Assembly (NCBI GenBank): GCA_964617815.1
Contig: CAZTXY010000001.1
Location: forward strand, 67,120-131,119
Source: an uncultured Candidatus Saccharibacteria bacterium
Lineage (GTDB): Bacteria > Patescibacteriota > Doudnabacteria > UBA920
Reading direction: 5' to 3'
DNA: 64,000 nucleotides
Shown here: piece after piece, positions 31,445 to 54,550 of the stretch
Layout: every line of letters begins with the position of its first letter
Numbering within the stretch: position 1 is the first letter of the stretch
Notes under the pieces: generated by a model
Databases searched by the model: none
The model's input: the letters and a program-made list of their open reading frames with translations, nothing else
What the model was told of the DNA's origin: nothing
Position numbers and translations under genes: made by a program

Positions 31445-32140
31445 ATGCTTTCTACTATTTGGAAATTCATTCTAGAGACTATTGCACCAGTTACCTGTGT
31501 AAGCTGTGGAAAACACGGCCAACACCTCTGCTTTATTTGCCAGTCAAATTTACCAATAGCCAAACAGTTTTGCATTGTCTGTGGCAAAATTAGCTTGCTT
31601 GGCATTACCCATAATAAATGCAAGATCAAAAAAGATCCATACGGAGTTCTAGCTATTTTTGAATACAAAAATCCTAGCATTACTAAGCTAATTATTCGTG
31701 GAAAATATTACTTCATTCCCGACTGCTACTTCACTTTAGGAAGTGCGCTGTGTGAATACTTAAAACAACAGCATCTAGAAATATACTTTAAAAATTATAT
31801 TTTATGTCCCATCCCGTTAAGTAACGCAAGAGAACGTTGGCGCGGATTTAACCAATCCCAAATTATTGCTCAAGTTATAGCTAATAAATTAAATTTACAG
31901 ATGGAGCCAGCCTTAGTACGAACACGTTGGACTAAAACGCAAAAAAATCTAAAACAAGCGGCTCGGCAGAAAAATGTTACAGGGTGTTTTGGCCTAAATA
32001 ATCATATCTCTGTTTCTGGAAAATCAATTCTATTAATTGATGACGTGGTTACAACTGGTGCCACACTTCGCGAAGCTACTCTCACTCTCAAACTAGCGGG
32101 CGCCAAAAACGTATGGTGCCTTGCAGTCGCCCGCGACTAA
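31445..32140 (+). CDS. comF: ComF family phosphoribosyltransferase (competence protein F-like)
   Basis: N-terminal Cys4 zinc ribbon and a C-terminal PRTase motif LLIDDVVTTGATL. Confidence 0.8.
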   Translation: MLSTIWKFILETIAPVTCVSCGKHGQHLCFICQSNLPIAKQFCIVCGKISLLGITHNKCKIKKDPYGVLAIFEYKNPSITKLIIRGKYYFIPDCYFTLGSALCEYLKQQHLEIYFKNYILCPIPLSNARERWRGFNQSQIIAQVIANKLNLQMEPALVRTRWTKTQKNLKQAARQKNVTGCFGLNNHISVSGKSILLIDDVVTTGATLREATLTLKLAGAKNVWCLAVARD

Positions 32141-38190: not shown

Positions 38191-38252
38191 CCGGTGCACA
38201 CAGATTTTGGAGACCCGCTCCAGAAGAAGTGTGCACCGGCTCTCTTCTTTTT
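38191..38252 (+). terminator. Rho-independent terminator (long GC-rich hairpin)
   Basis: 11-bp stem ccggtgcacac/gtgtgcaccgg with an inner stem, followed by ctctcttcttttt. Confidence 0.65.
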
Positions 38253-39588
38253 AAAATAATTTTTGAACGTCAATAATCTGTTTTACAGAAAGTTGAGAGA
38301 TATCCGTCTTTAAACCTTTGGTCACAGTATTTGAGACAATTTCAGAAAACCCAAGCTTTACTGCTTCCTTGGCTCGCTTTTCACTTTGAGTCACCCCACG
38401 AACCTCACCAAGCAAACCAATTTCTCCAAAGGCCAAGAGACCTTCACTGAGGGCTTTATTTTTAAATGAAGATAAAATAGCCAACGCCACTGGTAAGTCT
38501 GCTGCTCGTTCACTAATATTAAAACCTCCAGCAACGTTTACATAAACATCGTGACTACTTAAATTTATTTGTAGAGACTTTTGCAGGATCGCTAAAATTA
38601 ACTGAAGGCGATTGAGGTCGAAGCCAGAAGTTGTTCTTCGTGGATACCCAAACTGCGATGGGTTTGTCAGTGCCTGAATTTCTAAGATAAGCACTTTGTT
38701 GCCTTCTAAAATTGCAGCAGCACAACTTCCCGGAAGTCCAGTCAAGCGATTTTCCAAAAACATAGCCGAGGGATTTTTGACTTCAATCATACCTTGTTCG
38801 GTCATCGCAAATACCCCAACTTCCCCACTGCTACCAAATCTGTTTTTACTTGAACGAAGCAATCGCAAACTTAAAAAACGTTCCCCTTCTAAATATAAAA
38901 CTACATCTACCATATGTTCCAAAGTTTTTGGCCCTGCTAACATTCCATCTTTTGTCACGTGGCCAATAATTAAAATGCTGGTGTGCTGTTGTTTGGCCAC
39001 GCGCATAAGTGTATTTGTGGCAAACGCAACTTGGCTAACACCTCCCACAACACCACTAACTTCACCAGAACTAATAGTTTGAATAGAATCAATGACGGCA
39101 AGAGTTGGCTGTTGGGCAATTAAAGTCGCAACTATCGTTTCTAAATTGGTTTCAGGAAAAACCAGCATGTCACCACTATTTTCTAACCGCGCGCTTCGAA
39201 GCTTTATCTGTTGAGCAGACTCTTCGCCAGAAATATACAACACCTTTTTGTTCGTGCCAGCAATATTCACCGCCGCCTGCAGTGCCAAAGTAGACTTACC
39301 AATTCCAGGGTCGCCGCCTAAAAGCACAAGAGCCCCAGGCACTAAACCGCCTCCTAGCACACTATCTAACTCAGAAATGCCAGTGCTAAACCTCGCGGTT
39401 TTTTGGTCCTCTAATTCTGACAACAATAAAACTTTTCCGGCCGTTGCGCCCAAAGCCGACTTAGTCAAACCAGAAAAAGCCTGTTCGGCCAAAGTATTCC
39501 ATTGGCTACAAGTGGGGCATTTCCCCTGCCAGCGCGAAGAGGTAGCCCCGCAATTACTGCAAATAAATTGAGTGGTTGGTTTAGCCAT
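38251..39588 (-). CDS. radA: DNA repair protein RadA/Sms
   Basis: N-terminal C4 zinc finger, RecA-like GDPGIGKST, and a Lon-like C-terminal domain. Confidence 0.95.
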   Translation of the reverse strand: MAKPTTQFICSNCGATSSRWQGKCPTCSQWNTLAEQAFSGLTKSALGATAGKVLLLSELEDQKTARFSTGISELDSVLGGGLVPGALVLLGGDPGIGKSTLALQAAVNIAGTNKKVLYISGEESAQQIKLRSARLENSGDMLVFPETNLETIVATLIAQQPTLAVIDSIQTISSGEVSGVVGGVSQVAFATNTLMRVAKQQHTSILIIGHVTKDGMLAGPKTLEHMVDVVLYLEGERFLSLRLLRSSKNRFGSSGEVGVFAMTEQGMIEVKNPSAMFLENRLTGLPGSCAAAILEGNKVLILEIQALTNPSQFGYPRRTTSGFDLNRLQLILAILQKSLQINLSSHDVYVNVAGGFNISERAADLPVALAILSSFKNKALSEGLLAFGEIGLLGEVRGVTQSEKRAKEAVKLGFSEIVSNTVTKGLKTDISQLSVKQIIDVQKLF

Positions 39589-39709: not shown

Positions 39710-39751
39710 TACTAGGCACTAGGAACTAGTTACTAAATGCTACTGACTCAC
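39710..39751. repeat. tandem heptamer array NACTAGN x4-6
   Basis: Reads tactagg cactagg aactagt tactaaa tgctact gactcac. It overlaps the stop codon of the ORF ending at 39740. It is preceded by the palindromic hairpin aaaagccc/gggctttt. Confidence 0.65.
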
Positions 39752-40900
39752 ATCTATATAATATAACCCCTCATCCTGCATATTCTTAAAAAACAACTTA
39801 TCGTTAGTCAAATTCAAAAACATTTCACGTGCATCTACAGCCAATCCTGGGTCAATCTGTTTTTGCGTGGCAGTTTGTGAATCAATTTCGTAAATAATAT
39901 CTTCAGTTAAACCTTTATCTGGCAGGCCTCGCGTTGGTACTGCAGCATAAAGTTTTTGGCTATTGTTAGCCCAAACTACTTTATCAACCGTTGTAAAAAC
40001 CCCCAAATTTTTTGTCTCACCAGAAACTACGTCGCCAACCCAAAGCTGATACCTCTGGCCATCACTATCCCTGCGACCAAAAACAAACTTCTGACTGTCG
40101 GGTGCCCAAAGCACTCCAAAGTTATAACCTTCTTTAACTACAGACTTAAAAATTTGTCCATCCGAAGTTGTTAAGTTAATCGCGTTACGCGAATCTGTAC
40201 TTGCAAGCCGATAAAATAAAATTGTTCGGCCATCAGGAGAAATATTTAATTCATCATCATTCTCCCATATATCTGCTATCGTCGTATAATTAGTACTGTC
40301 GGGGTCAGCAATACTCAACGTAGACTTCCCCTCTTCATCTAACCAAATATAAATTATTCGATCCCCAGTCGGCATCCAATTCACCGAGGTAATTTGACTT
40401 GGCAAATCTGTAAAACCACCCTTTAGACTGTCGTACACGCTCCAGGTTCTACTTGTTCCACTTCCAGACTGAACCATAAAGTTATTACCAGAAAGTGGCC
40501 AAATAACTTTTGAGCCTCCAGACTTTTGAGGAATTACCAACTCTTTTTTATTTGCCAACAACACTACCCCATTGCCAATCTGCAAATCACTTTGAAATAA
40601 TTGCCCTTGCTTATTAAAATAAGTAATTCCGTTACCTTGATAAAACAATACCGGACTGACAACCTGGTCTTCAGTTAAGCGAATTGCCTTAACCCCAGTG
40701 TTAAAACCAGAACCAGAGTTATTAGGGATTTCATCTTGCGGAGGCTGATTTTGAGTGTCGTCTGTATTTGCCTGAGTATCACTAGGTGTATTTGCATTTT
40801 CTTCATCACCAGATTTACTGCGTTGAAAAATCAACACTGCTAGTGTAATAACTATAAGTAAAAATATGCCGCCTAAAATCGCAATCGCTTTTTTATTCAT
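39740..40900 (-). CDS. secreted beta-propeller protein (TolB/PD40-like repeats)
   Basis: N-terminal TM helix or signal peptide, a low-complexity linker, and repeated beta-strand-rich units with recurring W/Y-x-P-D-G motifs. Confidence 0.5.
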   Translation of the reverse strand: MNKKAIAILGGIFLLIVITLAVLIFQRSKSGDEENANTPSDTQANTDDTQNQPPQDEIPNNSGSGFNTGVKAIRLTEDQVVSPVLFYQGNGITYFNKQGQLFQSDLQIGNGVVLLANKKELVIPQKSGGSKVIWPLSGNNFMVQSGSGTSRTWSVYDSLKGGFTDLPSQITSVNWMPTGDRIIYIWLDEEGKSTLSIADPDSTNYTTIADIWENDDELNISPDGRTILFYRLASTDSRNAINLTTSDGQIFKSVVKEGYNFGVLWAPDSQKFVFGRRDSDGQRYQLWVGDVVSGETKNLGVFTTVDKVVWANNSQKLYAAVPTRGLPDKGLTEDIIYEIDSQTATQKQIDPGLAVDAREMFLNLTNDKLFFKNMQDEGLYYIDVSQ

Positions 40901-41116: not shown

Positions 41117-41932
41117 CTACTTTAAAGCCTCTTCAATCGCTTGTTTAAAAGTCGCGTAACTTTGGGCTCCCTCAAAACGTTTACCATTTACAAATACAGT
41201 TGGAGTTGCCTGCACACCATACTGAGTACCACCTTGTGTTTCAGTCTCCACATCTACTTTATGAATTCGGCTGTCAACACAAGTATTAAAGTCAGTAGCG
41301 TTTAAGCCGATGGCTTTGCCAAACTTTTTTAAATTAACTTGAGAAAAAGCTCCTTCATTTTCTCCACCTTGGTTGTCGTACAAATAATTATGAAATTCCC
41401 AAAACTTCCCTTGATCTTGCGCACACTTCGCCGCTTCTGCAGAAAAATGTGATTCTTCTCCCAAGAAAGCATAATCCTGATATGAAAATTTAACTTTACC
41501 AGTATCTACATAGTCAATTTTCAACTGTTTATAAACAGTATCGTATAATTTTTTGCAAAATGGACACTGGAAGTCTGCGTACTCCACAACTGTAACTTTT
41601 GCGTCCTTATTTCCCAAAATAGGCGCAGTGTCAGGAAGTTTCAAGTCAACTTGTTGTGGAACCACTGGTGCCTGCTGACCTGCCGGAACAACGCCAAGTT
41701 TAGTTTGACTTGTAAGAACAGTGTCTAATTTTGTAGAAATTGTTTTAGTGCTATACCAGACCACTCCACCAATAACCCCAGCTCCAATAATAATTGCCAA
41801 GAAGGCAAACAGGCCAATTATCAAAGCCACGCCAAATAACCTACGGTCCTGTGGTGTTAAATTTATTTTTTTTGCCGTAGCAATCTCTTCGGCAACTGGT
41901 TCACTAACTACATCATCATTTTCGTTTTGCAT
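41117..41932 (-). CDS. DsbA-like thiol:disulfide oxidoreductase (membrane-anchored)
   Basis: N-terminal TM helix and a thioredoxin fold with the CPFC active site. Confidence 0.8.
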   Translation of the reverse strand: MQNENDDVVSEPVAEEIATAKKINLTPQDRRLFGVALIIGLFAFLAIIIGAGVIGGVVWYSTKTISTKLDTVLTSQTKLGVVPAGQQAPVVPQQVDLKLPDTAPILGNKDAKVTVVEYADFQCPFCKKLYDTVYKQLKIDYVDTGKVKFSYQDYAFLGEESHFSAEAAKCAQDQGKFWEFHNYLYDNQGGENEGAFSQVNLKKFGKAIGLNATDFNTCVDSRIHKVDVETETQGGTQYGVQATPTVFVNGKRFEGAQSYATFKQAIEEALK

Positions 41933-41941
41933 AAATCTCCT

Positions 41942-42436
41942 TTATCGAATATTAATTGATTGTTCATTTTCAACTGCTTCTTCTGGAATTATATCATATG
42001 GAGGACAAAAACTAAGTCCATAATTTTTTTGATTATCTTGTTTAGAACTACCTGGTAAAGACAAGCCTAATGATACTGACAACTTACAAGCATCGGCTTT
42101 TTCAATATCAAGTCTTTTTAAAAAATCCACTTCAGCAAGTTTTCTATTTTCTAAAATAGGTTTAGCCATAATTAAAATGTAGAAAGTTTGGTTATCATCA
42201 TCAAAAAATGTAATATATTTATCATTTTCTTCTATAAATACATCGCCAGTCTCTTTTGAAAGAACCGAGGGCAATTGATGAAAATCATTTACAGCAACGA
42301 TTGCACCAGAAGATGTTTCTAATTTTAGTTTCGCAGTTTTTTCTGAATCCTTGCTAAGATAGTAAAAGACACTCGCTAAAACTAAGAGCAACAAAATTAT
42401 TATCCCTATTATTATAATTATGTTTTTTTTAGTCAT
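41942..42436 (-). CDS. small membrane-anchored protein in the T4SS-like cluster
   Basis: Start trimmed to MTKKNIIIIIG. One TM helix. Confidence 0.45.
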   Translation of the reverse strand: MTKKNIIIIIGIIILLLLVLASVFYYLSKDSEKTAKLKLETSSGAIVAVNDFHQLPSVLSKETGDVFIEENDKYITFFDDDNQTFYILIMAKPILENRKLAEVDFLKRLDIEKADACKLSVSLGLSLPGSSKQDNQKNYGLSFCPPYDIIPEEAVENEQSINIR

Positions 42437-42438
42437 AT

Positions 42439-44673
42439 TTATTGTCCGCACTTTCCAGAGGAATACTCTAAATAATAACGTGAACCAGTAACAACATAAT
42501 TGCGGGTTTGGCAATAAGTCGCGCTTGCCGCACAATCATTGGTCACATTACTTCCAGGTATACAGGCTGTTTGAGCACCGCTCGTAAAAGGACATTCCCA
42601 AAAGAATTTTCCTGGACAAGAATTACTTGATCTCCAAGGGCCTCCAGGACCTTCACCAGCATTGTAGGCAGCCAAAATATTCCCAATATTATTCCCAATA
42701 TGTGGTTGGTTTGGAATTTGTGATAAATATTTAGTACCACAAAAAATATTTGCTCGCGGGTCACAAGCATCACTAAACGAACCGCATCCTAATCCAGCCC
42801 ATGTTCCTGGTATAATTTGCATTAAACCTTTAGCCCCAGCGGAGCCGTATCCAGTCTGACAATTTCTCCAACCACTTTCTTTTTGAATTACTGCCCTAAT
42901 TAAACTAATATCAACACTATATGCGCGGGAAGCCTCAGCAACAATTCTATCTAAATCGCCATGATTACAAGTAGCAGTTCCCCCTAAATCACATCCGCCA
43001 CTACAAACACCACCGCCAGAACCCTGAACAATTACACACTGTCCTGATCCAGGACCAGGCTCAACACCGCCACCCCCACCTGTCCCGCCACCGCCGAAGA
43101 GTCCTCCGCCGCCAGCACTAAGCGATAACTTTCCACAAATTTCGCTGAGAGCTTGAAATTTTTCTAAACCGGGAACAAAATAAGTAGCGCCGGGAACGTA
43201 AGAAGTTATATTGCCTGCTGTAGAAATCCACTGCGCTCCAGGCAAATTACAAATGACAACAAAAAATAATGCAATCCAAAGAGCTATCCCTATTAAGTAT
43301 ATCGCATTTAGCACTCCTGTGATAAGCATTTTTATCCACCCCATTGGCTGACGAATCCCAATAATAGAACCAACTAAAAATGCATCTAAAACAATTAGCG
43401 GGAGAAAGCCGATGGGGATAAGCACAATAGAAAGTAAACACAAAATGCATATAGCAATCAACCACACCGCCATATCGTCAAGGCCAGACTTAATGACAGC
43501 CTTAGCACTTTCGATAGCAATATTAATAGCAACACCAACACCGGGTGCAACATTGGCGGCAGTAGCCGCTGTTTCAGCAACTGCAGCTGCGGCATCAATA
43601 GCAATATCGGCACCTAACTTAGCAGTCTCTGTAACTTTACCAAGACCACTTGCTTCTTCTATCTTATGTTTGCGATTTGCAATGTCAGCACCTGCATCAA
43701 TTACAGCGCCACCAATGGACAATGCCCCAGAAATATTCGCAGCTTTACTCCCAGCTTCTGCCCCCGCTACACCAGCTTTTATAGCATTACCAGTAATTCC
43801 AACTCCGGCTTTAGCAGCTGTTCCAGCCACTTCTGCAGCCTCAGCTCCACCACGAATAGCTCCTGCAGCCGCACGTTCGGCCCCGGCTCCCCGGCCCACA
43901 GTCCGAGCAGCTCCGCCTAAGCGAGCTGCATCTTCAACACCTTCTTCAGCTAACTCTTCGCCTGCTTTAACAGATGCTTTTCCCGGAGCACCGGGCTGCC
44001 CTTCAACAGTTTCTGATTTTGGAACGTCATCTGGAGACTCAGCCTTTGCTTTTGCTTGATCACGCTCTTTTACGCGCTTATCGTAATCTTTCTTGTGACG
44101 CTCTGCAAATTCAACCGGGCCTTCCTTTTCCTCTTTTTGTTGCCCTTGTTGTGCGTCGTTTCCTGTTTCTGCTTTTTTTTCTGAACCATCTCCTTCTTCA
44201 TCCGGACTTTTTAGCCGATCTTCAGTTAAACTTTGATCATTTTTTTGTGCTTGGTCGTCTAGAGCATTTTCTTTAGAAAAAGATTCATTGTTCGAAGAAG
44301 TTTGTTGTTGATTAATATTTTGATTATCATTGAAAGCTGATGCATTATCTCCGCCTGTATTGCTAGGTGTGGTCTTGCCACGAAAAGGACTAACTGTGCC
44401 AGGTTGTGAAGAGGACCCCCCATTTCCTTTTTGCTTAAAATCAACTTGAGTAACCTTAGTTTTTACTTTTGGATCATTAGAAACAACCGTGACAGGTTTA
44501 TCACTTTCTGCATCTCCACTTTTTTTTGGCACAACGCGCATAGCAGCGCGGGGCTGGCCATCACCCTGACTGCCTCCTTGAATAACAGAAAAGCCTGGCT
44601 GCTCTCCAGCCGATTGTTCTTCGTTATCTACATCGGAGTCGGTTGGCAGTCTTGCCAGGTTATCATTCGCCAT
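42439..44673 (-). CDS. VirB1-like lytic transglycosylase fusion protein
   Basis: Disordered N-terminal region, Ala-rich region, TM helices and a Gly-rich linker. The Cys-rich C-terminal domain carries SLT motifs QKESGW, GLMQI and AYNAG. Confidence 0.7.
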   Translation of the reverse strand: MANDNLARLPTDSDVDNEEQSAGEQPGFSVIQGGSQGDGQPRAAMRVVPKKSGDAESDKPVTVVSNDPKVKTKVTQVDFKQKGNGGSSSQPGTVSPFRGKTTPSNTGGDNASAFNDNQNINQQQTSSNNESFSKENALDDQAQKNDQSLTEDRLKSPDEEGDGSEKKAETGNDAQQGQQKEEKEGPVEFAERHKKDYDKRVKERDQAKAKAESPDDVPKSETVEGQPGAPGKASVKAGEELAEEGVEDAARLGGAARTVGRGAGAERAAAGAIRGGAEAAEVAGTAAKAGVGITGNAIKAGVAGAEAGSKAANISGALSIGGAVIDAGADIANRKHKIEEASGLGKVTETAKLGADIAIDAAAAVAETAATAANVAPGVGVAINIAIESAKAVIKSGLDDMAVWLIAICILCLLSIVLIPIGFLPLIVLDAFLVGSIIGIRQPMGWIKMLITGVLNAIYLIGIALWIALFFVVICNLPGAQWISTAGNITSYVPGATYFVPGLEKFQALSEICGKLSLSAGGGGLFGGGGTGGGGGVEPGPGSGQCVIVQGSGGGVCSGGCDLGGTATCNHGDLDRIVAEASRAYSVDISLIRAVIQKESGWRNCQTGYGSAGAKGLMQIIPGTWAGLGCGSFSDACDPRANIFCGTKYLSQIPNQPHIGNNIGNILAAYNAGEGPGGPWRSSNSCPGKFFWECPFTSGAQTACIPGSNVTNDCAASATYCQTRNYVVTGSRYYLEYSSGKCGQ

Positions 44674-44691
44674 AAATTTGTACTAACCTAA

Positions 44692-46536
44692 TTATCCTGC
44701 AAACTGGTCTTTGCTTTCTTGAATTTCCAGTAACTGTTTCGGGTCTGTTGTAATTATTTGGTCTTCCATGTAGGAAGCGTAAATTTTGATAGCCGCATGC
44801 TTAAGTCCAGCAAAAAATATTCCTTCACCAACATCACTTTCAAGTAATAAATATTTCTCACCTTCAGTTAAAAAGAAAGTTTCAGCCACAATATCCACAG
44901 ACGCAGGACTTTGCTTAAGAAGTAACTGAATTGAAGAGTTTGTGACAATTGGTTTGCCGTACGGACTACTCATAAAATCTGCGACATCCTGAGTGATTGT
45001 TGTAAGACCAAGATAATATTTACGAGCGCGCTTGGCAATTCCATACACAAACCGAGCGGAGTCTTCGTGTTGCATAAGTATCCAAGCTTCATCAAGTACT
45101 AAGATACGGCGCTTCAGCTCGCTTCTAACCACATTCCAAATATGTCCTAAAATTAAATACATTGCCACTGGCCTTAGCTCGTCTTCTAAATCGCGAATTG
45201 AAAAAACTAAAAGCTGATTATTTAAAACAACGTTGCTTGGCTGGTTAAGAAGCCCAGCAAAAGTTCCTTCGGTAAACTTCGAGAGACGCTGAGCTAAACT
45301 TTCCGCACCCACCATATCACCTAAGACAGAAACTAAATCACTCATCACCGGATAGTCAGTGGTCTTAAGTTCCATGCCAGGAGTAATATCTTTGTTCGCA
45401 TACGCCTGCCAAATAGCTTTATCAAGTAGCGCTTCTTCAGTTGGATCTAGTTTACCTAAAACTAAATTCATCAGCCCCAAAAGTCCAATCACCGCACTGC
45501 GCATGGTGTCACTACTGTCTTCACCTTCAAGACCAATAGGTAAGTCAAAAGGATTAATGCGGTAGTCTGAGTTAAGCGAGATGCTTAAATATGTTCCACC
45601 AACCGCGTCGGCTAAATGTTTATATTCATTTTCAGGATCCACAATTAAAACTTCAATGCCAACCATCAAAGAACGCAGGACTTCTAATTTCACCGCATAC
45701 GATTTTCCGGCACCAGACTTAGCAAAAATTACAAAATTAGCATTTTCCATCTTAAACCGGTCAAATAAAATTAAACCGTTGTTGTGCCGGTTAATCCCGT
45801 AAAGTACTCCATCATTTCCAGTTAAATCCGAAGACACAAAAGGAAAAGTTGTCGAAAGGGGGCTGGTATTTAGATTATTTGCTACACCTAAATCGTCTAA
45901 TTGCATTGGCAATGTCGAGTTAAACCCAGGTTGCATTTGCATTAAGGCTCTCTTTGTAACCACGAGCTTCGCACCAAGTGCACTTTCAAGAATAGTTGAC
46001 TCTTTGTCGAGTTCGCGAAGATCTTTAGCATACAAAGTAAAATACAAAGCAAAACGAAAATACTTTTCAGTACCTTGCAATAAATTATCGCGCAATTCCT
46101 CGACGTCGTGATATCCTGTTTCCAGTAATGGATCACGTACCAAACCTTTTTCTCGGTTAATCATCATTTGTGAACCAATCTCTCCAACCTTCCCTTTCAA
46201 CTTTCTCAAGATTGTTCCAGAGTCAATTGGGTAAATAAACATTGAGACATCTAATGCCCCTTGAGAGTTGATAACAAACGACAACCAGTTCGAAGATAAA
46301 TAACGTGGGTAGGTTAAGACAAAAAAACTACGCGCAAATTTTCCATTCAACTCAAAATGGTCAGCCTCAAACTTCAAGCTTGCAGGCGCTATAAGGTCTT
46401 TAAGCGAAGTTAAACCTTGCTTATAGCTATCTTCAAGAGTACTAAGCTCTTTTCGAGTCGCCTCTTTACTCTTGCGCTCCTCAAGCTCATGCTTTTTCGC
46501 TTCTAATTGTTCTTCTGAAAGGTTAAACCAAGACAT
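44692..46536 (-). CDS. VirB4/TraC-like conjugal transfer ATPase, C-terminal ATPase part
   Basis: Walker A FAKSGAGKS and the Walker B region VLDEAW. Family-level resemblance to VirB4/TrsE. Confidence 0.8.
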   Translation of the reverse strand: MSWFNLSEEQLEAKKHELEERKSKEATRKELSTLEDSYKQGLTSLKDLIAPASLKFEADHFELNGKFARSFFVLTYPRYLSSNWLSFVINSQGALDVSMFIYPIDSGTILRKLKGKVGEIGSQMMINREKGLVRDPLLETGYHDVEELRDNLLQGTEKYFRFALYFTLYAKDLRELDKESTILESALGAKLVVTKRALMQMQPGFNSTLPMQLDDLGVANNLNTSPLSTTFPFVSSDLTGNDGVLYGINRHNNGLILFDRFKMENANFVIFAKSGAGKSYAVKLEVLRSLMVGIEVLIVDPENEYKHLADAVGGTYLSISLNSDYRINPFDLPIGLEGEDSSDTMRSAVIGLLGLMNLVLGKLDPTEEALLDKAIWQAYANKDITPGMELKTTDYPVMSDLVSVLGDMVGAESLAQRLSKFTEGTFAGLLNQPSNVVLNNQLLVFSIRDLEDELRPVAMYLILGHIWNVVRSELKRRILVLDEAWILMQHEDSARFVYGIAKRARKYYLGLTTITQDVADFMSSPYGKPIVTNSSIQLLLKQSPASVDIVAETFFLTEGEKYLLLESDVGEGIFFAGLKHAAIKIYASYMEDQIITTDPKQLLEIQESKDQFAG

Positions 46537-46540
46537 ATAG

Positions 46541-47245
46541 TTAACTCACTTCATTATTATTTCCAACAATCGCTATTTCTCCTAATTTTCCAGCATCGAT
46601 TAGCGGTCCCGACTCAAAATTATACGAATTATAAAATAGCTCAATCAGCTGTTCGGTATTTAGTCGCACTGCACGCAAACTCATCCCACCTAAGTTATTG
46701 GCAACACTACCAGCCCGTTCATCAAGTAAAGTTCTAACTTTTTCAAAATTTTCCAGCCTTTGGGCAATTTCCCGTGTTTTAGTACTTTTAAATAATCTTG
46801 CAAAAAATCCCGCTTTAGGAGGAAAAATATTTTGGGGCAATGAAATAATAATGTAAAAATTTTTATTCATTATATTTGCGCTCTCAACTAAATGGCTAAT
46901 AAACTCAATGTACTCACCAGTTTGAATGCGTAGCAATTCATTAGGCTGTTTTTCCATTAAGTGTTTTAAACTTTCGGTGTAGTCACCAATATCCATTCTT
47001 CGACTCTGCATTAAAACTTGGATTGGAAAATCCAACGAATTAATAAACCGCTGATATGCAACAATTAAAGCATCTTGTTCATCCTGACTCTTAAGATCAA
47101 AGTTTGTGCTTGAAACAGCCACCACGGCACGCAGGGTTCCGTCTTCCATAACAACACAGTCGTTGCGAATTTCATAAAATCGCAAAAATGATTGCGTTGG
47201 TTTTAAAATTGGTTTATTTGATTTTTTGTTTGAAAAAAGTCCCAT
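46541..47245 (-). CDS. VirB4-like N-terminal domain encoded as a separate ORF
   Basis: TAA-CTAT-ATG junction with the downstream ATPase ORF. The sequence pattern resembles the VirB4 N-domain of Gram-positive T4SS. Confidence 0.5.
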   Translation of the reverse strand: MGLFSNKKSNKPILKPTQSFLRFYEIRNDCVVMEDGTLRAVVAVSSTNFDLKSQDEQDALIVAYQRFINSLDFPIQVLMQSRRMDIGDYTESLKHLMEKQPNELLRIQTGEYIEFISHLVESANIMNKNFYIIISLPQNIFPPKAGFFARLFKSTKTREIAQRLENFEKVRTLLDERAGSVANNLGGMSLRAVRLNTEQLIELFYNSYNFESGPLIDAGKLGEIAIVGNNNEVS

Positions 47246-47253
47246 AAAATAAA

Positions 47254-47700
47254 TTAAAGTGGTTTATCTGCCAAAGCTGTCTCTGCAGCACCTTGCTGTG
47301 AAAGAGTGTAATTAAGTTTATGAAGCCTGACCGTTGCACTTTCCTGCTCTATTTTTGGAAGAGTAGTATCTGCTTGTTTTGTTTCTTGATCCATTAAAAT
47401 TTGGTGAGAAGAATCTAGCCCTTGTTTTGAAAAAATTAGAACTCTTGGGCTGACCATATACTGCAAATACGGGTAGAAGGTTGAATATAAAGGCCGACCG
47501 TTAATTTTTGCGAAAGTCAAAATTAACGCTGGCATTCCAAAAATTAAAAAGGCAAAGATGCCAACAATAATACTTTTTGTTCCTGTATAAAGCAAAAATG
47601 TCAGTGCGGCACCTGCACCTAAAATACCAAACTGCTTTAAAGTCAGTCCAGCTATGATTTTGTCTTCTACATCTGTAAATTGTGGGACGCTATATTGCAT
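47254..47700 (-). CDS. VirB3/PrgI-like small membrane protein
   Basis: 148 aa with two adjacent TM helices, sitting directly upstream of virB4. Confidence 0.4.
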   Translation of the reverse strand: MQYSVPQFTDVEDKIIAGLTLKQFGILGAGAALTFLLYTGTKSIIVGIFAFLIFGMPALILTFAKINGRPLYSTFYPYLQYMVSPRVLIFSKQGLDSSHQILMDQETKQADTTLPKIEQESATVRLHKLNYTLSQQGAAETALADKPL

Positions 47701-47744
47701 TCGTCTCTTTTTAGTATATCACACTATTTGCTTAATTGATCGCT

Positions 47745-48707
47745 CTAATTTACTTGAGTAGCACGCAAGACATCAATAACTGCTTCAAAATCTGTTTTAG
47801 ACATCCCGCCTAAATTTGCTGTAGTATTTGGGTCTGAATGCATCAATGCTTGCTGGCCTGCTTTCATATACTCTTCATACAAAGGACTTTTTTCTAACAA
47901 AAATAAAACTGAAAAATATCCAAACTTTTTAACTAAGGACCTCATGGCTTCAAGTAAATCATCTTTCCCAAGTGACATCACTGTCGACCGATTTAAGTGC
48001 TCTACATCTTCTAAGGATTTAAGCTCGAGCGGAACTTCACTTGAAAAATTAGTTTTCGCCACTTCCATTTTCTGGGGCAACTCACTTAAAGAGCTATGCT
48101 TAAGCAAAGCGCTATAGTCAGTCTGCTTAGTGACAACTTTTTGCAAATGAACAGGGGTTATTGGCTTCAACCCTGCTTTCACCAAAGGTAGGCCTGCGGT
48201 AGGGTTAGGACGAGCATTTATTGATGCCAAAGGCGCTGTCGCAATACTAGGTCTTGCAGGAGAGTTAAGTTGATGATCAAAATCTTCTTGACCACTTTCC
48301 AATTCTTTTTCTGTCATGACCTGTGCCAAACTTTTTGCAAAAGCCCCTGTAGTTTGACCCTTGTCTTCGTGCCTAAATGTTTTCACCTGAGAACTTAAAG
48401 TTTGCTGAGGAGCACCCAAATTATTTGGTAAATTAGTTATATGATGAAGGCGGTTTGCAGTTAGAGGAGCAGAAGCCACTGGCTTAAGAGATGCTGAAAT
48501 TGGCCCAGGTTTTGGGCGCTGTTGTGTTTCTGGTAATTTTGCAATGACCACGCTAGAAGACGGCGCAGATAAAATAGTGACTAAGTCACTTAGCTGTTTG
48601 TCATTCATCACCGGCAAACTCTCAAGCCATGTTGTTTTTTCATCGGGCTGGAGTAATTTTGAAAAGGCAATAAGATTTTTAATTTTTTCTAGCGGTATAG
48701 AAGTCAT
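47745..48707 (-). CDS. hypothetical protein in the T4SS-like cluster (P/S/T-rich)
   Basis: 320 aa with no recognised domain. Confidence 0.4.
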   Translation of the reverse strand: MTSIPLEKIKNLIAFSKLLQPDEKTTWLESLPVMNDKQLSDLVTILSAPSSSVVIAKLPETQQRPKPGPISASLKPVASAPLTANRLHHITNLPNNLGAPQQTLSSQVKTFRHEDKGQTTGAFAKSLAQVMTEKELESGQEDFDHQLNSPARPSIATAPLASINARPNPTAGLPLVKAGLKPITPVHLQKVVTKQTDYSALLKHSSLSELPQKMEVAKTNFSSEVPLELKSLEDVEHLNRSTVMSLGKDDLLEAMRSLVKKFGYFSVLFLLEKSPLYEEYMKAGQQALMHSDPNTTANLGGMSKTDFEAVIDVLRATQVN

Positions 48708-48715
48708 TGTTTGCC

Positions 48716-50095
48716 TTATAAATCTTGAGACTCTTTACGTTTTTTTAAATCCTGTAACCGTTGCTCAATTTGCGAAGCTTCTAGCGCTCGCTTTTCTTGG
48801 CTTTGTTTTTTCATCTTTTCTATATCTACACTCCCTGCTCCACCACCAAGACCAACACCAGAAGATGGCACAACATTTCCAGCTAAGTCAATTGATTGCC
48901 TAGTAGTTCGATTATTAAGCAGGTCTTGCAAATTTACAGTTGGACCAAAAGGATTAGCCCGAGAAACTCCACTCATTGGCTCTGACTCTGTCTCTGGACT
49001 TATTTCTGCAACTGAAGCTTCAGCTTTTTGTTCATCTTGTTTTACTTCCGAAGCTGTATCTAAGTTTATAGAAGACAGTGGCTGAATATTTTGTAATAAC
49101 TCTGGGGGAAGACGAACTGGTTTTGGCGGTGTGGGAACTTGTTCCAAAATTGAGGCAGCTTTAGCATTTATTTTGGCTTTTGGTGGTTCTGGCGGAGTTG
49201 GTAATTCCACTGGACTAAACTCGGAGTCTGTCAAAGAAAAATCTTTGGCTTTTGAAGCGAGAAGCACATCTCTTGTGTCTTCGTACTTTTCAATTTCATC
49301 AGGATCAACTTCCGGCTTAAGTAGCCACTTATAAAATTTTATCAACTCAGTTAATAACTTTTTATCCTGTGGTGATAAACTCGCAACATTACTAGACTTT
49401 GTCATGTAGGCCGCTTCATCAAATACAGATGTAGCAGAGAGTGGTTTAGCAATAAAATCACCGTAATCTAAAATCCAATTTTTAATTACTGGTTGATACT
49501 GCTTACCGGAAATAACTAACGCTTGCGTTCCTAATTGTTCTTCATTTTGTTTAAGACTAGAGACAAGCGGTAGACCCCAATTTTCTTTATTCTCACCATA
49601 CTGATAATAATAAACCCGCTTAAATTCCATGCGCACATCGCCTGCATGCATTAAGTAGAGTAGGTTGTACCGAATTAAACCAGAGAGCTCCTCCAGTGGA
49701 AATTCTTTAAACAGCTTGACTTCAAACTCAAGCATGGCCTGCAGTAAAGAAAGATCTGCGCGAATTTTGCCCTTGTTTACAAGCGTCTTTACATCAACAA
49801 CCATTGGTACCAAATACTTCCCAAAGTCATAATTTGGATCATCAAGTCCTGACACTAACAACTCCGTTAAAAATTCTGGTTCATTGCCAATTGCCAATTC
49901 CGGTAACTCTACGGAGTCTTTCATAACTTGGAAGATATAGCGGTGCATTCGAGGAAGATCTACCTTATGAAGCCACATATACAAAAACTTTTTTGTATAT
50001 GTTCCCATAGAAAGAACATGCGAAACTAACCACTGTTTTTCAGTGTCACTAAAGCCTGATGCTGCTATAGCAGTTGTTAGTTCTTTATCATCCAT
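48716..50095 (-). CDS. hypothetical protein in the T4SS-like cluster
   Basis: 459 aa with a structured N-terminal half and a disordered Pro-rich C-terminus. Confidence 0.4.
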   Translation of the reverse strand: MDDKELTTAIAASGFSDTEKQWLVSHVLSMGTYTKKFLYMWLHKVDLPRMHRYIFQVMKDSVELPELAIGNEPEFLTELLVSGLDDPNYDFGKYLVPMVVDVKTLVNKGKIRADLSLLQAMLEFEVKLFKEFPLEELSGLIRYNLLYLMHAGDVRMEFKRVYYYQYGENKENWGLPLVSSLKQNEEQLGTQALVISGKQYQPVIKNWILDYGDFIAKPLSATSVFDEAAYMTKSSNVASLSPQDKKLLTELIKFYKWLLKPEVDPDEIEKYEDTRDVLLASKAKDFSLTDSEFSPVELPTPPEPPKAKINAKAASILEQVPTPPKPVRLPPELLQNIQPLSSINLDTASEVKQDEQKAEASVAEISPETESEPMSGVSRANPFGPTVNLQDLLNNRTTRQSIDLAGNVVPSSGVGLGGGAGSVDIEKMKKQSQEKRALEASQIEQRLQDLKKRKESQDL

Positions 50096-50098
50096 AGA

Positions 50099-53000
50099 CT
50101 ATAATCCTGCGATTACTTGATTAACCATATTATCTATCGTAGTTGTATTTATTGGGGCGCCAGAAATTGTGCGAGTCGCAAATTTCCCACCAAGCAAAGT
50201 TTCCAAATCACTTTTTAAGAGAGCTCTCTTTGCTGGATCCTTCAAATCCTCACCGGCGTGAGTCGAACGAACTGTATTAACACTTTTAATAATATCTTCT
50301 GTTAAATCTTCCTCTTCGGCTTTACTAATTGTTGGAATGCCTGCATCCCTAGTGTTTAACCGATCTGCAAAACTATTATGCACAAATGTCTTTGCAGAAT
50401 CGAGCATTGCATCTCGAGCTTTAGTATCTGCAACCCCACTAAATGCATCCGCTAACTCTGTATCATTAAAATGACTAATTTTACTCAAAACTCTATTAGC
50501 TTTATTCTGAACTTTGCCACGAACCTTACCCTCTAACCCATCATAGGCTATTCCAAATTGTTCATATTTATCATCCTTAGCTAACACACTTGCCACTGGA
50601 TCTTTAAGTTTTTCTGGAATTTTTGAATAACTATTACCACTGAAGTTTACCTTTGCATAACTCCCTGCAAAAGCTCTAAAATTCCTTTCAGCCTCATCCT
50701 TAACATCAGCTTCGGTAAAGTTTTTCCCTTTCTTTCTATACTCCTTAACCAATTTCTTTTGCATGCGATTGATAAATTCATTTCTCTTAGTTTCATCGCG
50801 TAATGCATCTCCAATTGCTTCCTGCTGATCTGCTCTAATATGAGTATTTTCCATTTCAGCTTTTCGTGCATCAGCAGTCAAGGCTAATTCAACAAGTCTG
50901 TCATTTGCCTCTACATCACCACTAGCCGTAGTAGCAACAAATGTAGATGCTGGGGTGTCTTCAGCAAGGGCCTTTGGAGACATTTTAGCTACAGCTTTAG
51001 CCTGATTTTTACTCATAAGAAATGCCGCTTCACCATTACGCCACTGTTCACGTTCTTCGGGAGTTTTAAGTTTTTTATACTCTTCAGCAAACTTTTCTTT
51101 GCGAATAGACTCAAGTTTTGCCTCAGAAACATTTGGGTCTCTTAGTCTCTCTGCATCTGCCTCTGCGTCAGCCGCTGTTTTTGCAGAATCAAACAAAGAT
51201 GCTCCACCAGCCGGTCCAACATTATCGCCAATATGTGCCAACCTTTTACTCTCATCATAACGAAATGCTCCTCTGATCCATTGCTCACCACTCTTACCAC
51301 CAATTTCATCAAGTTTTTTACCCAACACACCTGTTGAATAAGAATCCAACTGACCGTTATTAACCATGCCTTGCATAAACCCTCTCATGCCCTCGTCCGT
51401 AGCTGCAAATTTGAGTGCTTGAGCTAATTCTTTCATTCCACCTTGCTCAGCAATTACTTTAATAGTAGCCTGAAGTTTTGTGCGATCTTCCTGGTTTAAA
51501 TTCTTTTTCTCAGAAAGTTCTTTAACCCTTGCAATGTTTCGAGCAACATCCTCCTTTGTCGCCTCTTCTTGTTGTTTATCTACAGACTGTTGCATAAGCT
51601 CAGCGAGTTTGTATGTTTCATCACCTCGAGTAAATGGAAGTCGTGAAGCAACGTCTGTAGCCGCAGCACGAATTTTTTCTTGATCTTGTTTTTTTGCATT
51701 TGTCCAATTATCAAGAACTGCTTTTCCCGATGAAATTGGGTTAAACAAAGCTGAAATAGTGCGTCGTTTTCGTGAATCTGGGTCTACTGCTAAATACTCA
51801 GCGGTCTTTTTGCCTTTGTAGGTATTTGCTATTTCTCCACCCTTCTTAGCTACCCAAAGTGGACTTTTAAATCCTTTTTCTGCAAAGTCACCAATGGCTT
51901 TAGACCCAATCAAAGACAACGAGGAAGTGGCCTTCATTCCAATAATCAAAAATATCATCACAAGCAAGTTTGAGCCAATGGTAAATACAAAATCTGAAAT
52001 ATTTTGATACTGCGTCGCAAACCCAGGATTGCTTCCACCACTAACTAAATCTGCCATGATTGATTTGCTTAAACTAATATCAACTTCTGTACTCCCATTC
52101 GATGAAATAAACGCGGCGATGTTTAAAAAGAAAGCTAAAATAACCGCATAAAAAGCATACTTAAGAAACTTATCCCACCACATTTTTTGAAAACTTTTTG
52201 TGTTTGGCAAAACTCCTGCCACATAAGCCAAAGGTGACAGCATGAGTAAAATCCACAGCGCAATAATCCTAATAAACAACATTGCTGCTACGGCAACAAA
52301 CAACACGCCTGTTCCCAAAGCCATCGCCAAACTAACAAATGGTAAAAATAAATTTCCAACACCTTGTCCTGCTGTACCTGGTGTTATAATATTTTTATAA
52401 GACTTACTTAAATTATTTAATGACGGACCAGCAATAAGCACATAGGCCAGTCGGCGCACTGGCGTATATTCAAATGTCCCATCAGTTTTTGGGGGTGGGA
52501 GGAGCTGAGTCTGAACTGTATCGGCAAGACCCAAAATAGACTGCCCAATAACCAAACTAAAGTTAACTAGGACAGCTGCAATTATTAAGTTAACCAATAA
52601 CTGCTTATACTGGTATCCTTGCACACGAAAAATTGTGGCTAGTCCAATAACTAACAAAACAAGGATGAAGAAAATGTTACTAAGATTTCGCAGGACAATC
52701 CAGCCGGGCAAAATCACCGCAACAAAAGAGTCTTTGTAAGTTTGAATTCCAATTAATGCTTCTATCAGTGGAACGACTAAACTTAGTACCACAAAGGCTA
52801 CAAGACTAGATACAACCGCAATAACTGTACTAAAAATAGCTGTTAAAGTATCCAGTAAAGTATTAGCAATCACGCTCCCAAGACTTGGTCCTCCACTGGC
52901 AGGCGGAACAACTGGTGGAGTACCAACATCTTCTAAGGGTGTCGTTACAGGGTGATCATTACTTGTCTGGTCAATCTTTATTGTTACATTTTCACCAATT

Positions 53001-54118
53001 TTATGAGCCGTGCCTCCTTGCGGTGTAACAGTAGCGGAAAGAACCATTTCAGCTGGCGGAGAAGTGCTTCCAAGGGCTTGTTGAGTTGTAACTGTATTCC
53101 CAGCACGATATGCATAGGCCGGCTTACCGTCAACTTGAATGAGAACTGCTTTATTGACTGAGTAAGAGATTGTAATGCCAGGAGTAAAGGTAAGCGCAAA
53201 AACAACATTATCTAAATTTTGACATTCAGTTGATGCATCACCTGGTAGTATCACTTCTGCCCTAATTATAAATTGTTCAGTAAGCCCTACCACAGCTTTA
53301 TTTGTTTGAACCTGAGAACTTGCAATATTTGCAAAACAGTCTGTGCCCGTAGCACCACCCTTAGGCAAAATAAAAACATTATACGCTTTTGTGACTGTTT
53401 GATTTGTAGAATCTTTTAACGTTACTGTGAAATCTACTTTCTTATTTACATCACCTTCTGGTGGAATTCCACCAACTTTACCAGTGCTATCAATTCCAAG
53501 CCAAAAAGGTAAGGCGGGTTCTAAAGTCCAAGTATAAGGTGTCGTTCCTCCAGCTCCTGATAGCTGAGTACTATATTCCTTACCTACCTCGGCCTCAGGC
53601 AAGCGCTCTGCATCAGGTTGAATTGCTAAACCTTCTGCTACTGAAACAATAACTGTTTCTGGCAAGACTCTCGTAAAACCAAACTCTTTTACTGTCACTT
53701 TTAAGGTATAAGCGCCTATGGCATTAATTGACATATTTGCCTCACCACTAAATCCTTGCGGACTTGTATTCCTGTATACAGAGCCAGAAGTCGCCTCTGC
53801 AATGTTTGTAGGCTGATTAGTACCTTGTTCTAAAAATTTATAACTAAAACTAATATTAGATGCGGCATTTGCTGTACAGCCTGGTGGTGATACGTTTGGT
53901 TCCACAAATACGTCGGCCTTAAAAGATTGGCCTTTACTTACTTTTACTGGCCCCTTAGAACCATTAATAAAAATATTGCTTGTTTTAAATGGAGGCGTTG
54001 TAACTGAACACAATGCTAAAGCCAATTTGGGTGGAACAAGAAAAGTGCCTAATCCAATAAGCAAAAAGGCTAGAAAGGAAAGGGCTGATTTTGTTTTAAA
54101 TTTTTGTTTCAAAAGCAC
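50099..54118 (-). CDS. giant VirB6-like polytopic membrane protein (1339 aa)
   Basis: Signal peptide, N-terminal Ig-like beta-rich domains, a central block of 6 or more TM helices, and a long charged coiled-coil C-terminus. Confidence 0.55.
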   Translation of the reverse strand: MLLKQKFKTKSALSFLAFLLIGLGTFLVPPKLALALCSVTTPPFKTSNIFINGSKGPVKVSKGQSFKADVFVEPNVSPPGCTANAASNISFSYKFLEQGTNQPTNIAEATSGSVYRNTSPQGFSGEANMSINAIGAYTLKVTVKEFGFTRVLPETVIVSVAEGLAIQPDAERLPEAEVGKEYSTQLSGAGGTTPYTWTLEPALPFWLGIDSTGKVGGIPPEGDVNKKVDFTVTLKDSTNQTVTKAYNVFILPKGGATGTDCFANIASSQVQTNKAVVGLTEQFIIRAEVILPGDASTECQNLDNVVFALTFTPGITISYSVNKAVLIQVDGKPAYAYRAGNTVTTQQALGSTSPPAEMVLSATVTPQGGTAHKIGENVTIKIDQTSNDHPVTTPLEDVGTPPVVPPASGGPSLGSVIANTLLDTLTAIFSTVIAVVSSLVAFVVLSLVVPLIEALIGIQTYKDSFVAVILPGWIVLRNLSNIFFILVLLVIGLATIFRVQGYQYKQLLVNLIIAAVLVNFSLVIGQSILGLADTVQTQLLPPPKTDGTFEYTPVRRLAYVLIAGPSLNNLSKSYKNIITPGTAGQGVGNLFLPFVSLAMALGTGVLFVAVAAMLFIRIIALWILLMLSPLAYVAGVLPNTKSFQKMWWDKFLKYAFYAVILAFFLNIAAFISSNGSTEVDISLSKSIMADLVSGGSNPGFATQYQNISDFVFTIGSNLLVMIFLIIGMKATSSLSLIGSKAIGDFAEKGFKSPLWVAKKGGEIANTYKGKKTAEYLAVDPDSRKRRTISALFNPISSGKAVLDNWTNAKKQDQEKIRAAATDVASRLPFTRGDETYKLAELMQQSVDKQQEEATKEDVARNIARVKELSEKKNLNQEDRTKLQATIKVIAEQGGMKELAQALKFAATDEGMRGFMQGMVNNGQLDSYSTGVLGKKLDEIGGKSGEQWIRGAFRYDESKRLAHIGDNVGPAGGASLFDSAKTAADAEADAERLRDPNVSEAKLESIRKEKFAEEYKKLKTPEEREQWRNGEAAFLMSKNQAKAVAKMSPKALAEDTPASTFVATTASGDVEANDRLVELALTADARKAEMENTHIRADQQEAIGDALRDETKRNEFINRMQKKLVKEYRKKGKNFTEADVKDEAERNFRAFAGSYAKVNFSGNSYSKIPEKLKDPVASVLAKDDKYEQFGIAYDGLEGKVRGKVQNKANRVLSKISHFNDTELADAFSGVADTKARDAMLDSAKTFVHNSFADRLNTRDAGIPTISKAEEEDLTEDIIKSVNTVRSTHAGEDLKDPAKRALLKSDLETLLGGKFATRTISGAPINTTTIDNMVNQVIAGL

Positions 54119-54259
54119 AGAATTTATAGCTAAAAAGTCTTAAAATTAGACCAAAAGTTAGCTTTATTATATCACAACAACTCCATTTTTTCCAAATTTT
54201 AACAAAAAAGCACCGAGAAGTCTCTCGCGTGCCAAAAAACTCAAATATTGCAAAGCACT

Positions 54260-54550
54260 TTAGCCTCGTGGGCGAATAAATTGCGTTTTAATTTTTGGAA
54301 CAATCTCAGTTTGTTGAGACTCCGGAATTTTGTTTTCAATAACTGGTTTGGAAATAGGTTTAGTAACTGCAGGTTGAATTGTCGTAGTATTTGACGAAGC
54401 CGACGCCCCCACACCCTGCAATTTTGCTTTACCACCTGGTAAGCTAAAACCATTTTGCACCATTACAAACAAAACCAAAATAGCCGCACTCCCCCCAATT
54501 GCTAAAAGATGGGTAAGCCCAAAACCAAATTTTGTGTTACTACTCATCAT
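54260..54550 (-). CDS. small membrane protein (candidate pilin-like subunit)
   Basis: 96 aa with one hydrophobic helix (KFGFGLTHLLAIGGSAAILVLFVMV). It is the first gene of the cluster on the minus strand. Confidence 0.35.
   Translation of the reverse strand: MMSSNTKFGFGLTHLLAIGGSAAILVLFVMVQNGFSLPGGKAKLQGVGASASSNTTTIQPAVTKPISKPVIENKIPESQQTEIVPKIKTQFIRPRG

Follow-up and report, generated by a model that had tools for sequence, protein, structure and literature searches.

A probable chromosomal type IV secretion locus of the Doudnabacteria with two lineage-specific proteins and an exchangeable hydrolase cassette

The 64,000-nucleotide stretch of contig CAZTXY010000001.1 analysed here (the window) carries, between positions 41,117 and 54,118 of its minus strand, a gene set that very probably encodes a chromosomal type IV secretion system (T4SS) passed on vertically in the Doudnabacteria, with a VirB4 ATPase of the Patescibacteria-specific clade and an origin in the monoderm machinery of mating-pair formation class FATA (MPF-FATA). 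The view of the locus as a chromosomal feature inherited within the lineage follows from its flanks, its uniform G+C (GC) content and a gene order that recurs among relatives. On both sides lie housekeeping genes (ksgA and uvrD/pcrA upstream; a PD40 protein, radA, recG and, farther away, comFC downstream), the GC content of 0.37–0.43 is like that of the flanks, and all open reading frames (ORFs) of the locus are intact with their catalytic motifs present. In order of transcription, the genes are the following.

50099..54118, minus strand: extended VirB6-like protein, 1339 residues (TrbL and He_PIG matches, transmembrane (TM) segments)
48716..50095, minus strand: u459, unknown protein, 459 residues (family at the same position in related loci)
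47745..48707, minus strand: u320, unknown protein, 320 residues (family at the same position in related loci)
47254..47700, minus strand: PrgI family protein (VirB3-like), 148 residues, membrane-anchored (PF12666)
46541..47245, minus strand: TrsD/TraD-like protein, 234 residues (TrsD match; N-terminal positions of the VirB4 model)
44692..46536, minus strand: VirB4 ATPase, 614 residues (Pfam and NCBIfam matches, Walker motifs)
42439..44673, minus strand: membrane-anchored cell-wall hydrolase (VirB1-like), 744 residues (SLT match, TM block)
41942..42436, minus strand: small N-terminal-TM protein, 164 residues with a ~130-residue ectodomain (two invariant cysteines)
41117..41932, minus strand: membrane-anchored DsbA-like thiol:disulfide oxidoreductase, 271 residues (CPFC active site)

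An earlier sequence-only reading of this region had described a single minus-strand gene string; all ten of its ORFs are present where it placed them, and Pfam and NCBIfam domain results agree with its labels for eight of the ten, the remaining two being its unknowns. The VirB4 assignment is upheld by profile searches, in which the 614-residue protein scores 326.2 bits against the NCBIfam VirB4-like CD1110 family (cut-off 325) and 88.4 bits against P-loop_TraG, with weaker matches to the TraC, VirB4/CagE and TrbE models. Both the Walker A (AKSGAGKS) and Walker B (ILVLDE) motifs are intact in the translation. A generic FtsK/HerA protein was considered for this ATPase and is ruled out by the CD1110 and P-loop_TraG scores.

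A search with VirB4 returned 8000 scored candidates, all with E ≤ 1e-20; the best 120 of these 8000 show 76–82% identity, are nearly all 612–624 residues long and, where named, come from Patescibacteria. A scan of species-representative genomes yielded 73 related loci (designated below by L numbers), mostly labelled Candidatus Doudnabacteria, and the identity of VirB4 to its counterparts on Doudnabacteria genome contigs is 73–82%. The order VirB6-u459-u320-PrgI-TrsD-VirB4-hydrolase-(small TM)-(DsbA)-PD40-radA-recG recurs in dozens of contigs. Nor is the locus out of the ordinary for this lineage, in which the same order in related loci marks it as the standard Doudnabacteria arrangement.

The 234-residue protein encoded before VirB4 matches TrsD (E = 1.1e-5, below the curated cut-off) and covers positions 4–125 of the 752-position VirB4 model, of which the following 614-residue ORF covers positions 177–728. 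Its counterpart in a full-length CD1110-type VirB4 is the stretch of the first ~170 residues, in agreement with its earlier label as a VirB4 N-domain ORF, and PF26593 (TraC-like) is the precomputed Pfam assignment of an identical protein in L074. The junction between the two genes reads TAA, 4 nucleotides, ATG. More than 60 related loci keep the two apart, at times with another gene between them, so that they represent a native TrsD-plus-VirB4 pair and not a frameshift. VirB4 homologues of ~800 residues were considered as possible TrsD–VirB4 fusions, and the one checked (P0067) is not a fusion. The VirB3-like protein matches PF12666 (PrgI) with 42.7 bits (cut-off 27), as its earlier label had implied, and is kept in nearly all related loci.

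The largest protein of the locus begins with a signal or TM helix (residues 9–39), followed by a surface ectodomain with a He_PIG Ig-like domain at residues ~173–247 (34.9 bits with the ectodomain segment scanned alone, cut-off 24). A polytopic TM core with at least seven hydropathy TM segments spans residues ~416–732 and contains the TrbL match (residues 512–671); beyond it lies a hydrophilic C-terminal extension of ~600 residues. The term 'extended VirB6' is used because the Ig-like N-terminal ectodomain and the ~600-residue extension flank the TM core. The VirB6 assignment is sustained at the level of the family, which is present in 44 related loci: TrbL is matched by 20 of 40 aligned members including the window protein (best E = 1.6e-7), the window protein alone falling just below the threshold. 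A search of PDB sequences with the family profile produced nothing meaningful. In architecture only, the combination of a polytopic core with large hydrophilic additions (here a ~375-residue N-terminal ectodomain and the C-terminal extension) resembles the extended VirB6 proteins of Rickettsiales, whose systems are diderm (MPF-T) effector translocators.

Among the ORFs of the 64-kb window scanned with Pfam there is no coupling protein (VirD4/TcpA-type), relaxase or VirB9, VirB10 or VirB11, as the sequence-only reading had also noted, nor any integrase or repeat border; the window also contains no small two-TM intergenic ORF of the kind expected for a VirB2-like pilin. Because coupling protein, relaxase and pilin are missing from the window and the surroundings are housekeeping genes, the task of this T4SS is most likely not plasmid conjugation. 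It is very improbable that these genes form an integrated conjugative element, or the decayed remnant of one, moving DNA between cells now or in the past. Such an element would account for the best VirB4 score being that on CD1110, a VirB4 family of conjugative transposons, and for recognisable parts (VirB1, VirB3, VirB4, VirB6 and TrsD) that are all of conjugation type; however, the window yielded neither relaxase nor coupling protein, and neither integrase nor repeat borders, the genes occupy the same place between ksgA/uvrD and radA/recG in the same order in dozens of Doudnabacteria genomes, the GC content is like that of the flanks, and no ORF or catalytic motif is disrupted. Furthermore, the closest homologue of 99.3% of patescibacterial VirB4s belongs to the same class, from which transfer between classes was inferred to be rare (PMC12102498).

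Two observations concern the related loci themselves. Small unrelated genes are inserted among the T4SS genes of L008 (7881–8252 and 9591–9986), L012 (6563–6928) and L035 (7442–7882 and 7968–8330), and some small-gene insertions in relatives lie even between trsD and virB4; judging by their N-terminal sequences, the products of those in L008, L012 and L035 resemble four-helix-bundle proteins of the '23S rRNA intervening sequence' type and a PIN-domain protein. Contigs with a Doudnabacteria-type virB4 neighbourhood were also found in metagenome-assembled genomes deposited under Verrucomicrobiia (L032), Binatia (L059), Methylomirabilota (L070) and Acidobacteriaceae (L073), and these are probably mis-binned.

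The class of system to which the locus belongs has already been published. Transposon sequencing of the saccharibacterium Southlakia epibionticum identified a Gram-positive-like T4SS that is essential for epibiotic growth and is unusual in having no recognisable coupling or relaxase proteins (Wang et al., 2023; PMC10633639). A survey of 3,035 Patescibacteria genomes (Quinonero-Coronel et al., 2025; PMC12102498) placed most patescibacterial VirB4s in one monophyletic clade within MPF-FATA and found TrsD, VirB3/PrgI and VirB6 near virB4, relaxases almost always absent and VirB8 rarely detectable; the usual neighbours are ksgA and dnaA/dnaN and, in class ABY1, comF, recG and radA. The window locus is a further Doudnabacteria example of this class. 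The earlier interpretation as a minimal Gram-positive-style T4SS for cell–cell interaction rather than plasmid transfer matches these accounts (PMC12102498, PMC10633639) and is therefore not new.

The locus and the other systems of the Patescibacteria clade, such as the S. epibionticum cluster SEML1_0006-0019 (PMC10633639; PMC12102498), are chromosomal and relaxase-free, have separate TrsD and PrgI/VirB3 genes before VirB4 with VirB6 nearby, place a hydrolase directly downstream of virB4 and have ksgA, recG, radA or comF as neighbours. The S. epibionticum cluster differs in containing an essential pilin array, whereas no VirB2-like pilin genes occur in the locus or elsewhere in the window; conversely, u459 and u320 between virB6 and virB3, the Ig-like VirB6 ectodomain and the DsbA-like gene set the window apart from the S. 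epibionticum-type system. The monoderm MPF-FATA systems (pCF10 prg, pIP501 tra, pGO1/pSK41 trs and the Clostridioides difficile CTn elements) share with the window the VirB1-like, TM-anchored hydrolase, VirB3 (PrgI), VirB4, VirB6 and TrsD, together with the lack of the outer-membrane core proteins VirB7, VirB9 and VirB10, and the best curated model for the window VirB4 is the CD1110 family. Unlike these systems, the window contains no coupling protein, relaxase, oriT, recognisable VirB8-like protein or gene for a surface adhesin such as PrgB, and the locus shows conserved chromosomal synteny instead of forming a mobile element.

Several points weigh against the reading of the locus as an inherited T4SS of the Patescibacteria clade. 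The score of the window VirB6 against TrbL/VirB6 (22.5 bits) is just under the Pfam threshold of 25.9, and profile and PDB sequence searches of the locus identified no VirB8-like subunit. The placement of VirB4 in the Patescibacteria clade is read from its high identity to Patescibacteria proteins in combination with a published phylogeny and is thus a predicted membership. A coupling protein, a relaxase or a VirB2 pilin array could lie outside the visible 64 kb, and in many Patescibacteria VirD4 homologues are encoded far from virB4 (PMC12102498). Finally, the T4SS is stressed to be of still unknown function both in a 2025 review (PMC12857230) and in a 2024 perspective (PMC11665869), the latter describing its role in Saccharibacteria as 'completely unknown'.

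The neighbourhood also bears on a second explanation, in which the machine is a DNA-uptake (competence) system comparable to Helicobacter ComB or archaeal Ced that feeds recombination or nucleotide salvage. The locus adjoins comFC (31445–32140), recG and radA, an association also seen in the ABY1 class (PMC12102498), T4SS-mediated uptake has been raised as a candidate nucleotide route (PMC11665869), and VirB4 produces a weak match to CedB. This match amounts to 40 bits against a cut-off of 700, however, and reflects the common VirB4 fold, and in a genome this small and compact the proximity of genes says little by itself. In S. epibionticum, competence requires comEC and type IV pili (PMC12857230), and deletion of comEC has no effect on viability, whereas the T4SS is essential (PMC10633639, PMC12857230). 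A role in DNA uptake is consequently considered unlikely, and the inherited T4SS with a function in contact with a host bacterium is retained as the preferred reading.

Within this T4SS, the two proteins encoded between virB6 and virB3 are the least familiar components. Neither has a predicted TM helix. The prediction for u459 consists of a helical core (residues ~110–290), a disordered proline-rich region and a C-terminal helix; that for u320 consists of an N-terminal three-helix domain (residues 5–48), a disordered linker of ~175 residues and a C-terminal helical domain (residues 230–320) in which Gly263, Tyr264, Glu272, Ser274, Tyr280, Gly284, Phe307, Glu308 and Asp312 are near-invariant. 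Scans of Pfam, NCBIfam and PDB sequences gave no match for u459 or u320, even with all family members included (43 aligned sequences for u459, with zero Pfam hits), and searches of PDB sequences with the two family profiles yielded nothing meaningful. An AlphaFold model of u459 calculated from a two-sequence alignment was unusable (mean predicted local distance difference test score 41.9).

An iterative search detected families at the same positions in 42 loci for u459 and in 52 loci for u320. Both are lacking in the small number of non-Doudnabacteria loci retrieved, which have VirB6, PrgI, TrsD and VirB4 side by side. A word-indexed search gave one homologue for u459 and two for u320, and an exhaustive profile search gave 304 cluster representatives for u320, of which the one named representative checked is a Doudnabacteria hypothetical protein. 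By these searches, u459 and u320 are conserved proteins restricted to the Doudnabacteria, and they are candidate lineage-specific accessory factors of the T4SS. In a more distant Doudnabacteria clade, the u459 core and the u320 C-terminal domain occur in a single ORF (domain-only hidden Markov model (HMM) E values to ~1e-11), as in L035 (6009–7310), L044 (6038–7681), L064 (6285–7670) and ~12 other loci, which is a gene fusion or fission between Doudnabacteria clades. An N-terminal module common to both proteins was also considered and rejected, the HMM of the u320 N-terminal domain having no match in u459.

The 744-residue hydrolase comprises a disordered N-terminal region, a TM block (residues 392–483), a glycine-rich linker (residues ~515–540) and a cysteine-rich ectodomain with an SLT lytic transglycosylase domain (residues 578–684) that contains the ES, GLMQ and AYNAG motifs. 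The SLT match (62.9 bits in the whole protein, 66 bits with the ectodomain alone) and the TM block bear out the VirB1-like transglycosylase fusion proposed from the sequence. The DsbA-like protein, likewise recognised earlier, matches Thioredoxin_4 (125.8 bits) and DSBA (57.3 bits) and has a TM helix at residues 29–62. There are 15 cysteines beyond the last TM segment of the hydrolase. An in-locus DsbA gene is restricted to the closest relatives of the window (L001, L004, L053 and L074/L075), the DsbA-carrying relatives having mostly 13–15 cysteines in the hydrolase ectodomain; this distribution fits a role of the DsbA-like protein in oxidizing cysteine-rich exported domains.

Comparison of the window with near-identical strains indicates that exchange affects the hydrolase ectodomain together with the small TM gene, as one cassette. 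Contigs of three metagenomes encode a VirB4 that is 100% identical to that of the window, and the TrsD and PrgI proteins of L074 are 100% and 96% identical, respectively. The protein that follows VirB4 in L074 and L076 is 76–87% identical to the window hydrolase across the N-terminal region and the TM block, and the similarity ends exactly at the glycine-rich linker (window nucleotides ~43091–43109). Beyond it are three mutually unrelated ectodomains (E > 0.005): the SLT domain of the window, a different SLT domain in L076 and an SLT_3 lysozyme-like domain in L074. The small TM protein of the window shows 32% identity to that of L074 and no similarity to that of L076, and the DsbA gene that follows is again 79% identical in L074; the L076 contig does not extend to this gene. 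The exchanged unit corresponds to 42439–43109 plus 41942–42436 in the window, to 5839–7496 in L074 and to 4351–5396 in L076.

The same pairing is evident in a survey of ~57 loci, in which 20 of the 21 genes with a lysozyme-like ectodomain precede one for a small TM-anchored protein. Ectodomains were clustered with low-complexity masking, as unmasked glycine-rich linkers joined unrelated domains, and the resulting clusters pair with particular small-protein families (9/10, 8/8 and 2/2, plus the window); the loci are phylogenetically related, so these counts represent at least three distinct pairings and not independent events. No small TM gene is present in the 20 loci with M15/VanY-like or unclassified ectodomains or in the 16 without an ectodomain. 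On this pattern, the small TM protein is predicted to be the cognate partner of the lysozyme-like ectodomain that precedes it in the operon. In a nine-sequence alignment of its family, Cys117 and Cys144 are invariant, and the family has no Pfam or PDB sequence match.

The hydrolase and the small protein could instead be an ordinary VirB1 and VirB8 pair, equivalent to prgK-prgL after prgJ in pCF10, with the small protein as a VirB8-like scaffold and not an inhibitor or immunity-like partner. The succession of VirB4, a TM-anchored hydrolase and a small protein with an N-terminal TM helix and a ~130-residue ectodomain is a Gram-positive T4SS operon order, found in pCF10 and pIP501. The few VirB8/PrgL homologues that are detectable in Patescibacteria do adjoin virB4 (PMC12102498). 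However, the nine-sequence family has no PrgL or VirB8 profile match and no PDB counterpart, the gene is missing wherever the hydrolase has no lysozyme-like ectodomain (the ~36 loci above), and its exchange together with the ectodomain between near-identical strains is unexpected of a core scaffold. A VirB8-type identity is thus possible but not favoured.

If the small protein is a cognate partner, the pair resembles polymorphic effector–partner modules in architecture only. As in polymorphic toxin–immunity modules and in enzyme–inhibitor pairs (Ivy, MliC/PliC), a conserved anchor and linker carry a C-terminal enzyme that is replaced between strains; the small gene is like an immunity partner, again only in architecture, in that it co-varies with the enzyme and encodes a membrane-anchored, exported protein with a conserved cysteine pair. 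Unlike secreted toxins, the hydrolase is a membrane-tethered enzyme of T4SS type, and no homology to a known immunity or inhibitor family was found. A bolder and rather doubtful proposal is that the locus contains two undescribed T4SS modules. One would be a strain-swapped, membrane-tethered 'warhead', in which a lysozyme-like or peptidase ectodomain may be recombined between strains with a cognate small membrane-anchored partner that could be an inhibitor or immunity-like protein; if this is true, the hydrolase would be aimed at, or tuned to, the cell wall of the host bacterium. The other would be the u459/u320 pair, which might stand in for the missing coupling protein as an adaptor peculiar to this lineage.

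By analogy with known systems, VirB6 would form the membrane channel onto which PrgI and TrsD would dock VirB4, the transglycosylase would open the peptidoglycan and the oxidoreductase would probably form disulfides in the cysteine-rich exported domains. The lineage-specific u459 and u320, neither with a predicted TM helix, may act together as accessory factors because they are fused as a single protein in one clade. Rather than conjugating plasmids, the assembled machine would more probably mediate contact-dependent exchange with a host bacterium, either exporting protein or another macromolecule or taking material up, as proposed in the literature for Saccharibacteria.

The limits of the transcription unit are marked by two further features.

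54166..54195, minus strand: promoter-like site, TTGGAA-18 nt-TG-TATAAT, upstream of virB6 (10 of 12 consensus matches plus the TG extension; consensus match alone)
54260–54550, minus strand: 96-residue ORF with one TM helix, outside the operon

From the ORF coordinates, the gaps between the genes from virB6 (50099–54118) to the DsbA-like gene (41117–41932) are only 2–44 nucleotides, suggesting one operon. The promoter-like site is the best of the region (54195–54166, directly upstream of virB6) and is the probable operon start. A terminator-like hairpin followed by a T run (54227–54214) lies between the 96-residue ORF and virB6, and since hairpin and promoter-like site separate the two, the T4SS unit most likely spans ~54195 to 41117 (~13 kb). 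The 96-residue protein, which had been read as a pilin-like part of the system, is ruled out as a pilin or operon member: in addition to these signals, it has a single TM helix, no Pfam match even at E = 5 and no homologues in the 73 related loci. The small TM protein had been assigned 197 residues; its N-terminal TM helix is confirmed, but the TTG start of that ORF (41942–42535) falls inside the preceding gene, and translation likely begins at the ATG at 42436, right behind the stop codon of that gene, giving 164 residues.

Other genes of the window lie close to the T4SS. A 386-residue PD40/TolB-like β-propeller protein with an N-terminal TM helix is encoded between the T4SS genes and radA (39740–40900, minus strand); its family occupies the same position in 60 of the 73 related loci, and it may belong functionally to the T4SS neighbourhood. 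Clustered beside the T4SS are comFC (plus strand), recG (35706–37790, plus strand) and radA (38251–39588, minus strand). Upstream of the locus, beyond uvrD, are a LysM and CHAP cell-wall hydrolase (58120–59376, plus strand) and a 601-residue DUF11/DUF7619 repeat surface protein (59526–61331, minus strand), which are possible further cell-surface or host-interaction factors. The segment 26001–28000 has a GC content of 0.517 compared with ~0.40 elsewhere and encodes SAICAR synthetase and AIR carboxylase (purC and purE), purine genes that may have been acquired horizontally.

Much of the bacterial diversity that is still uncultured belongs to the Patescibacteria, and in the one species tested the T4SS is essential for epibiotic growth. 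A targeted full-text literature search found no description of the Doudnabacteria-specific u459/u320 pair, the VirB6 Ig-like ectodomain or the strain-level exchange of ectodomain and partner as a cassette, and it is in these that the residual novelty of the locus lies. As a clean Doudnabacteria example, it distinguishes constant parts (VirB6, VirB3, TrsD and VirB4) from those that are lineage-specific or swap rapidly (u459/u320, the hydrolase ectodomain with its partner, and DsbA). The surface-exposed, fast-swapping parts are obvious candidates for determinants of host range.

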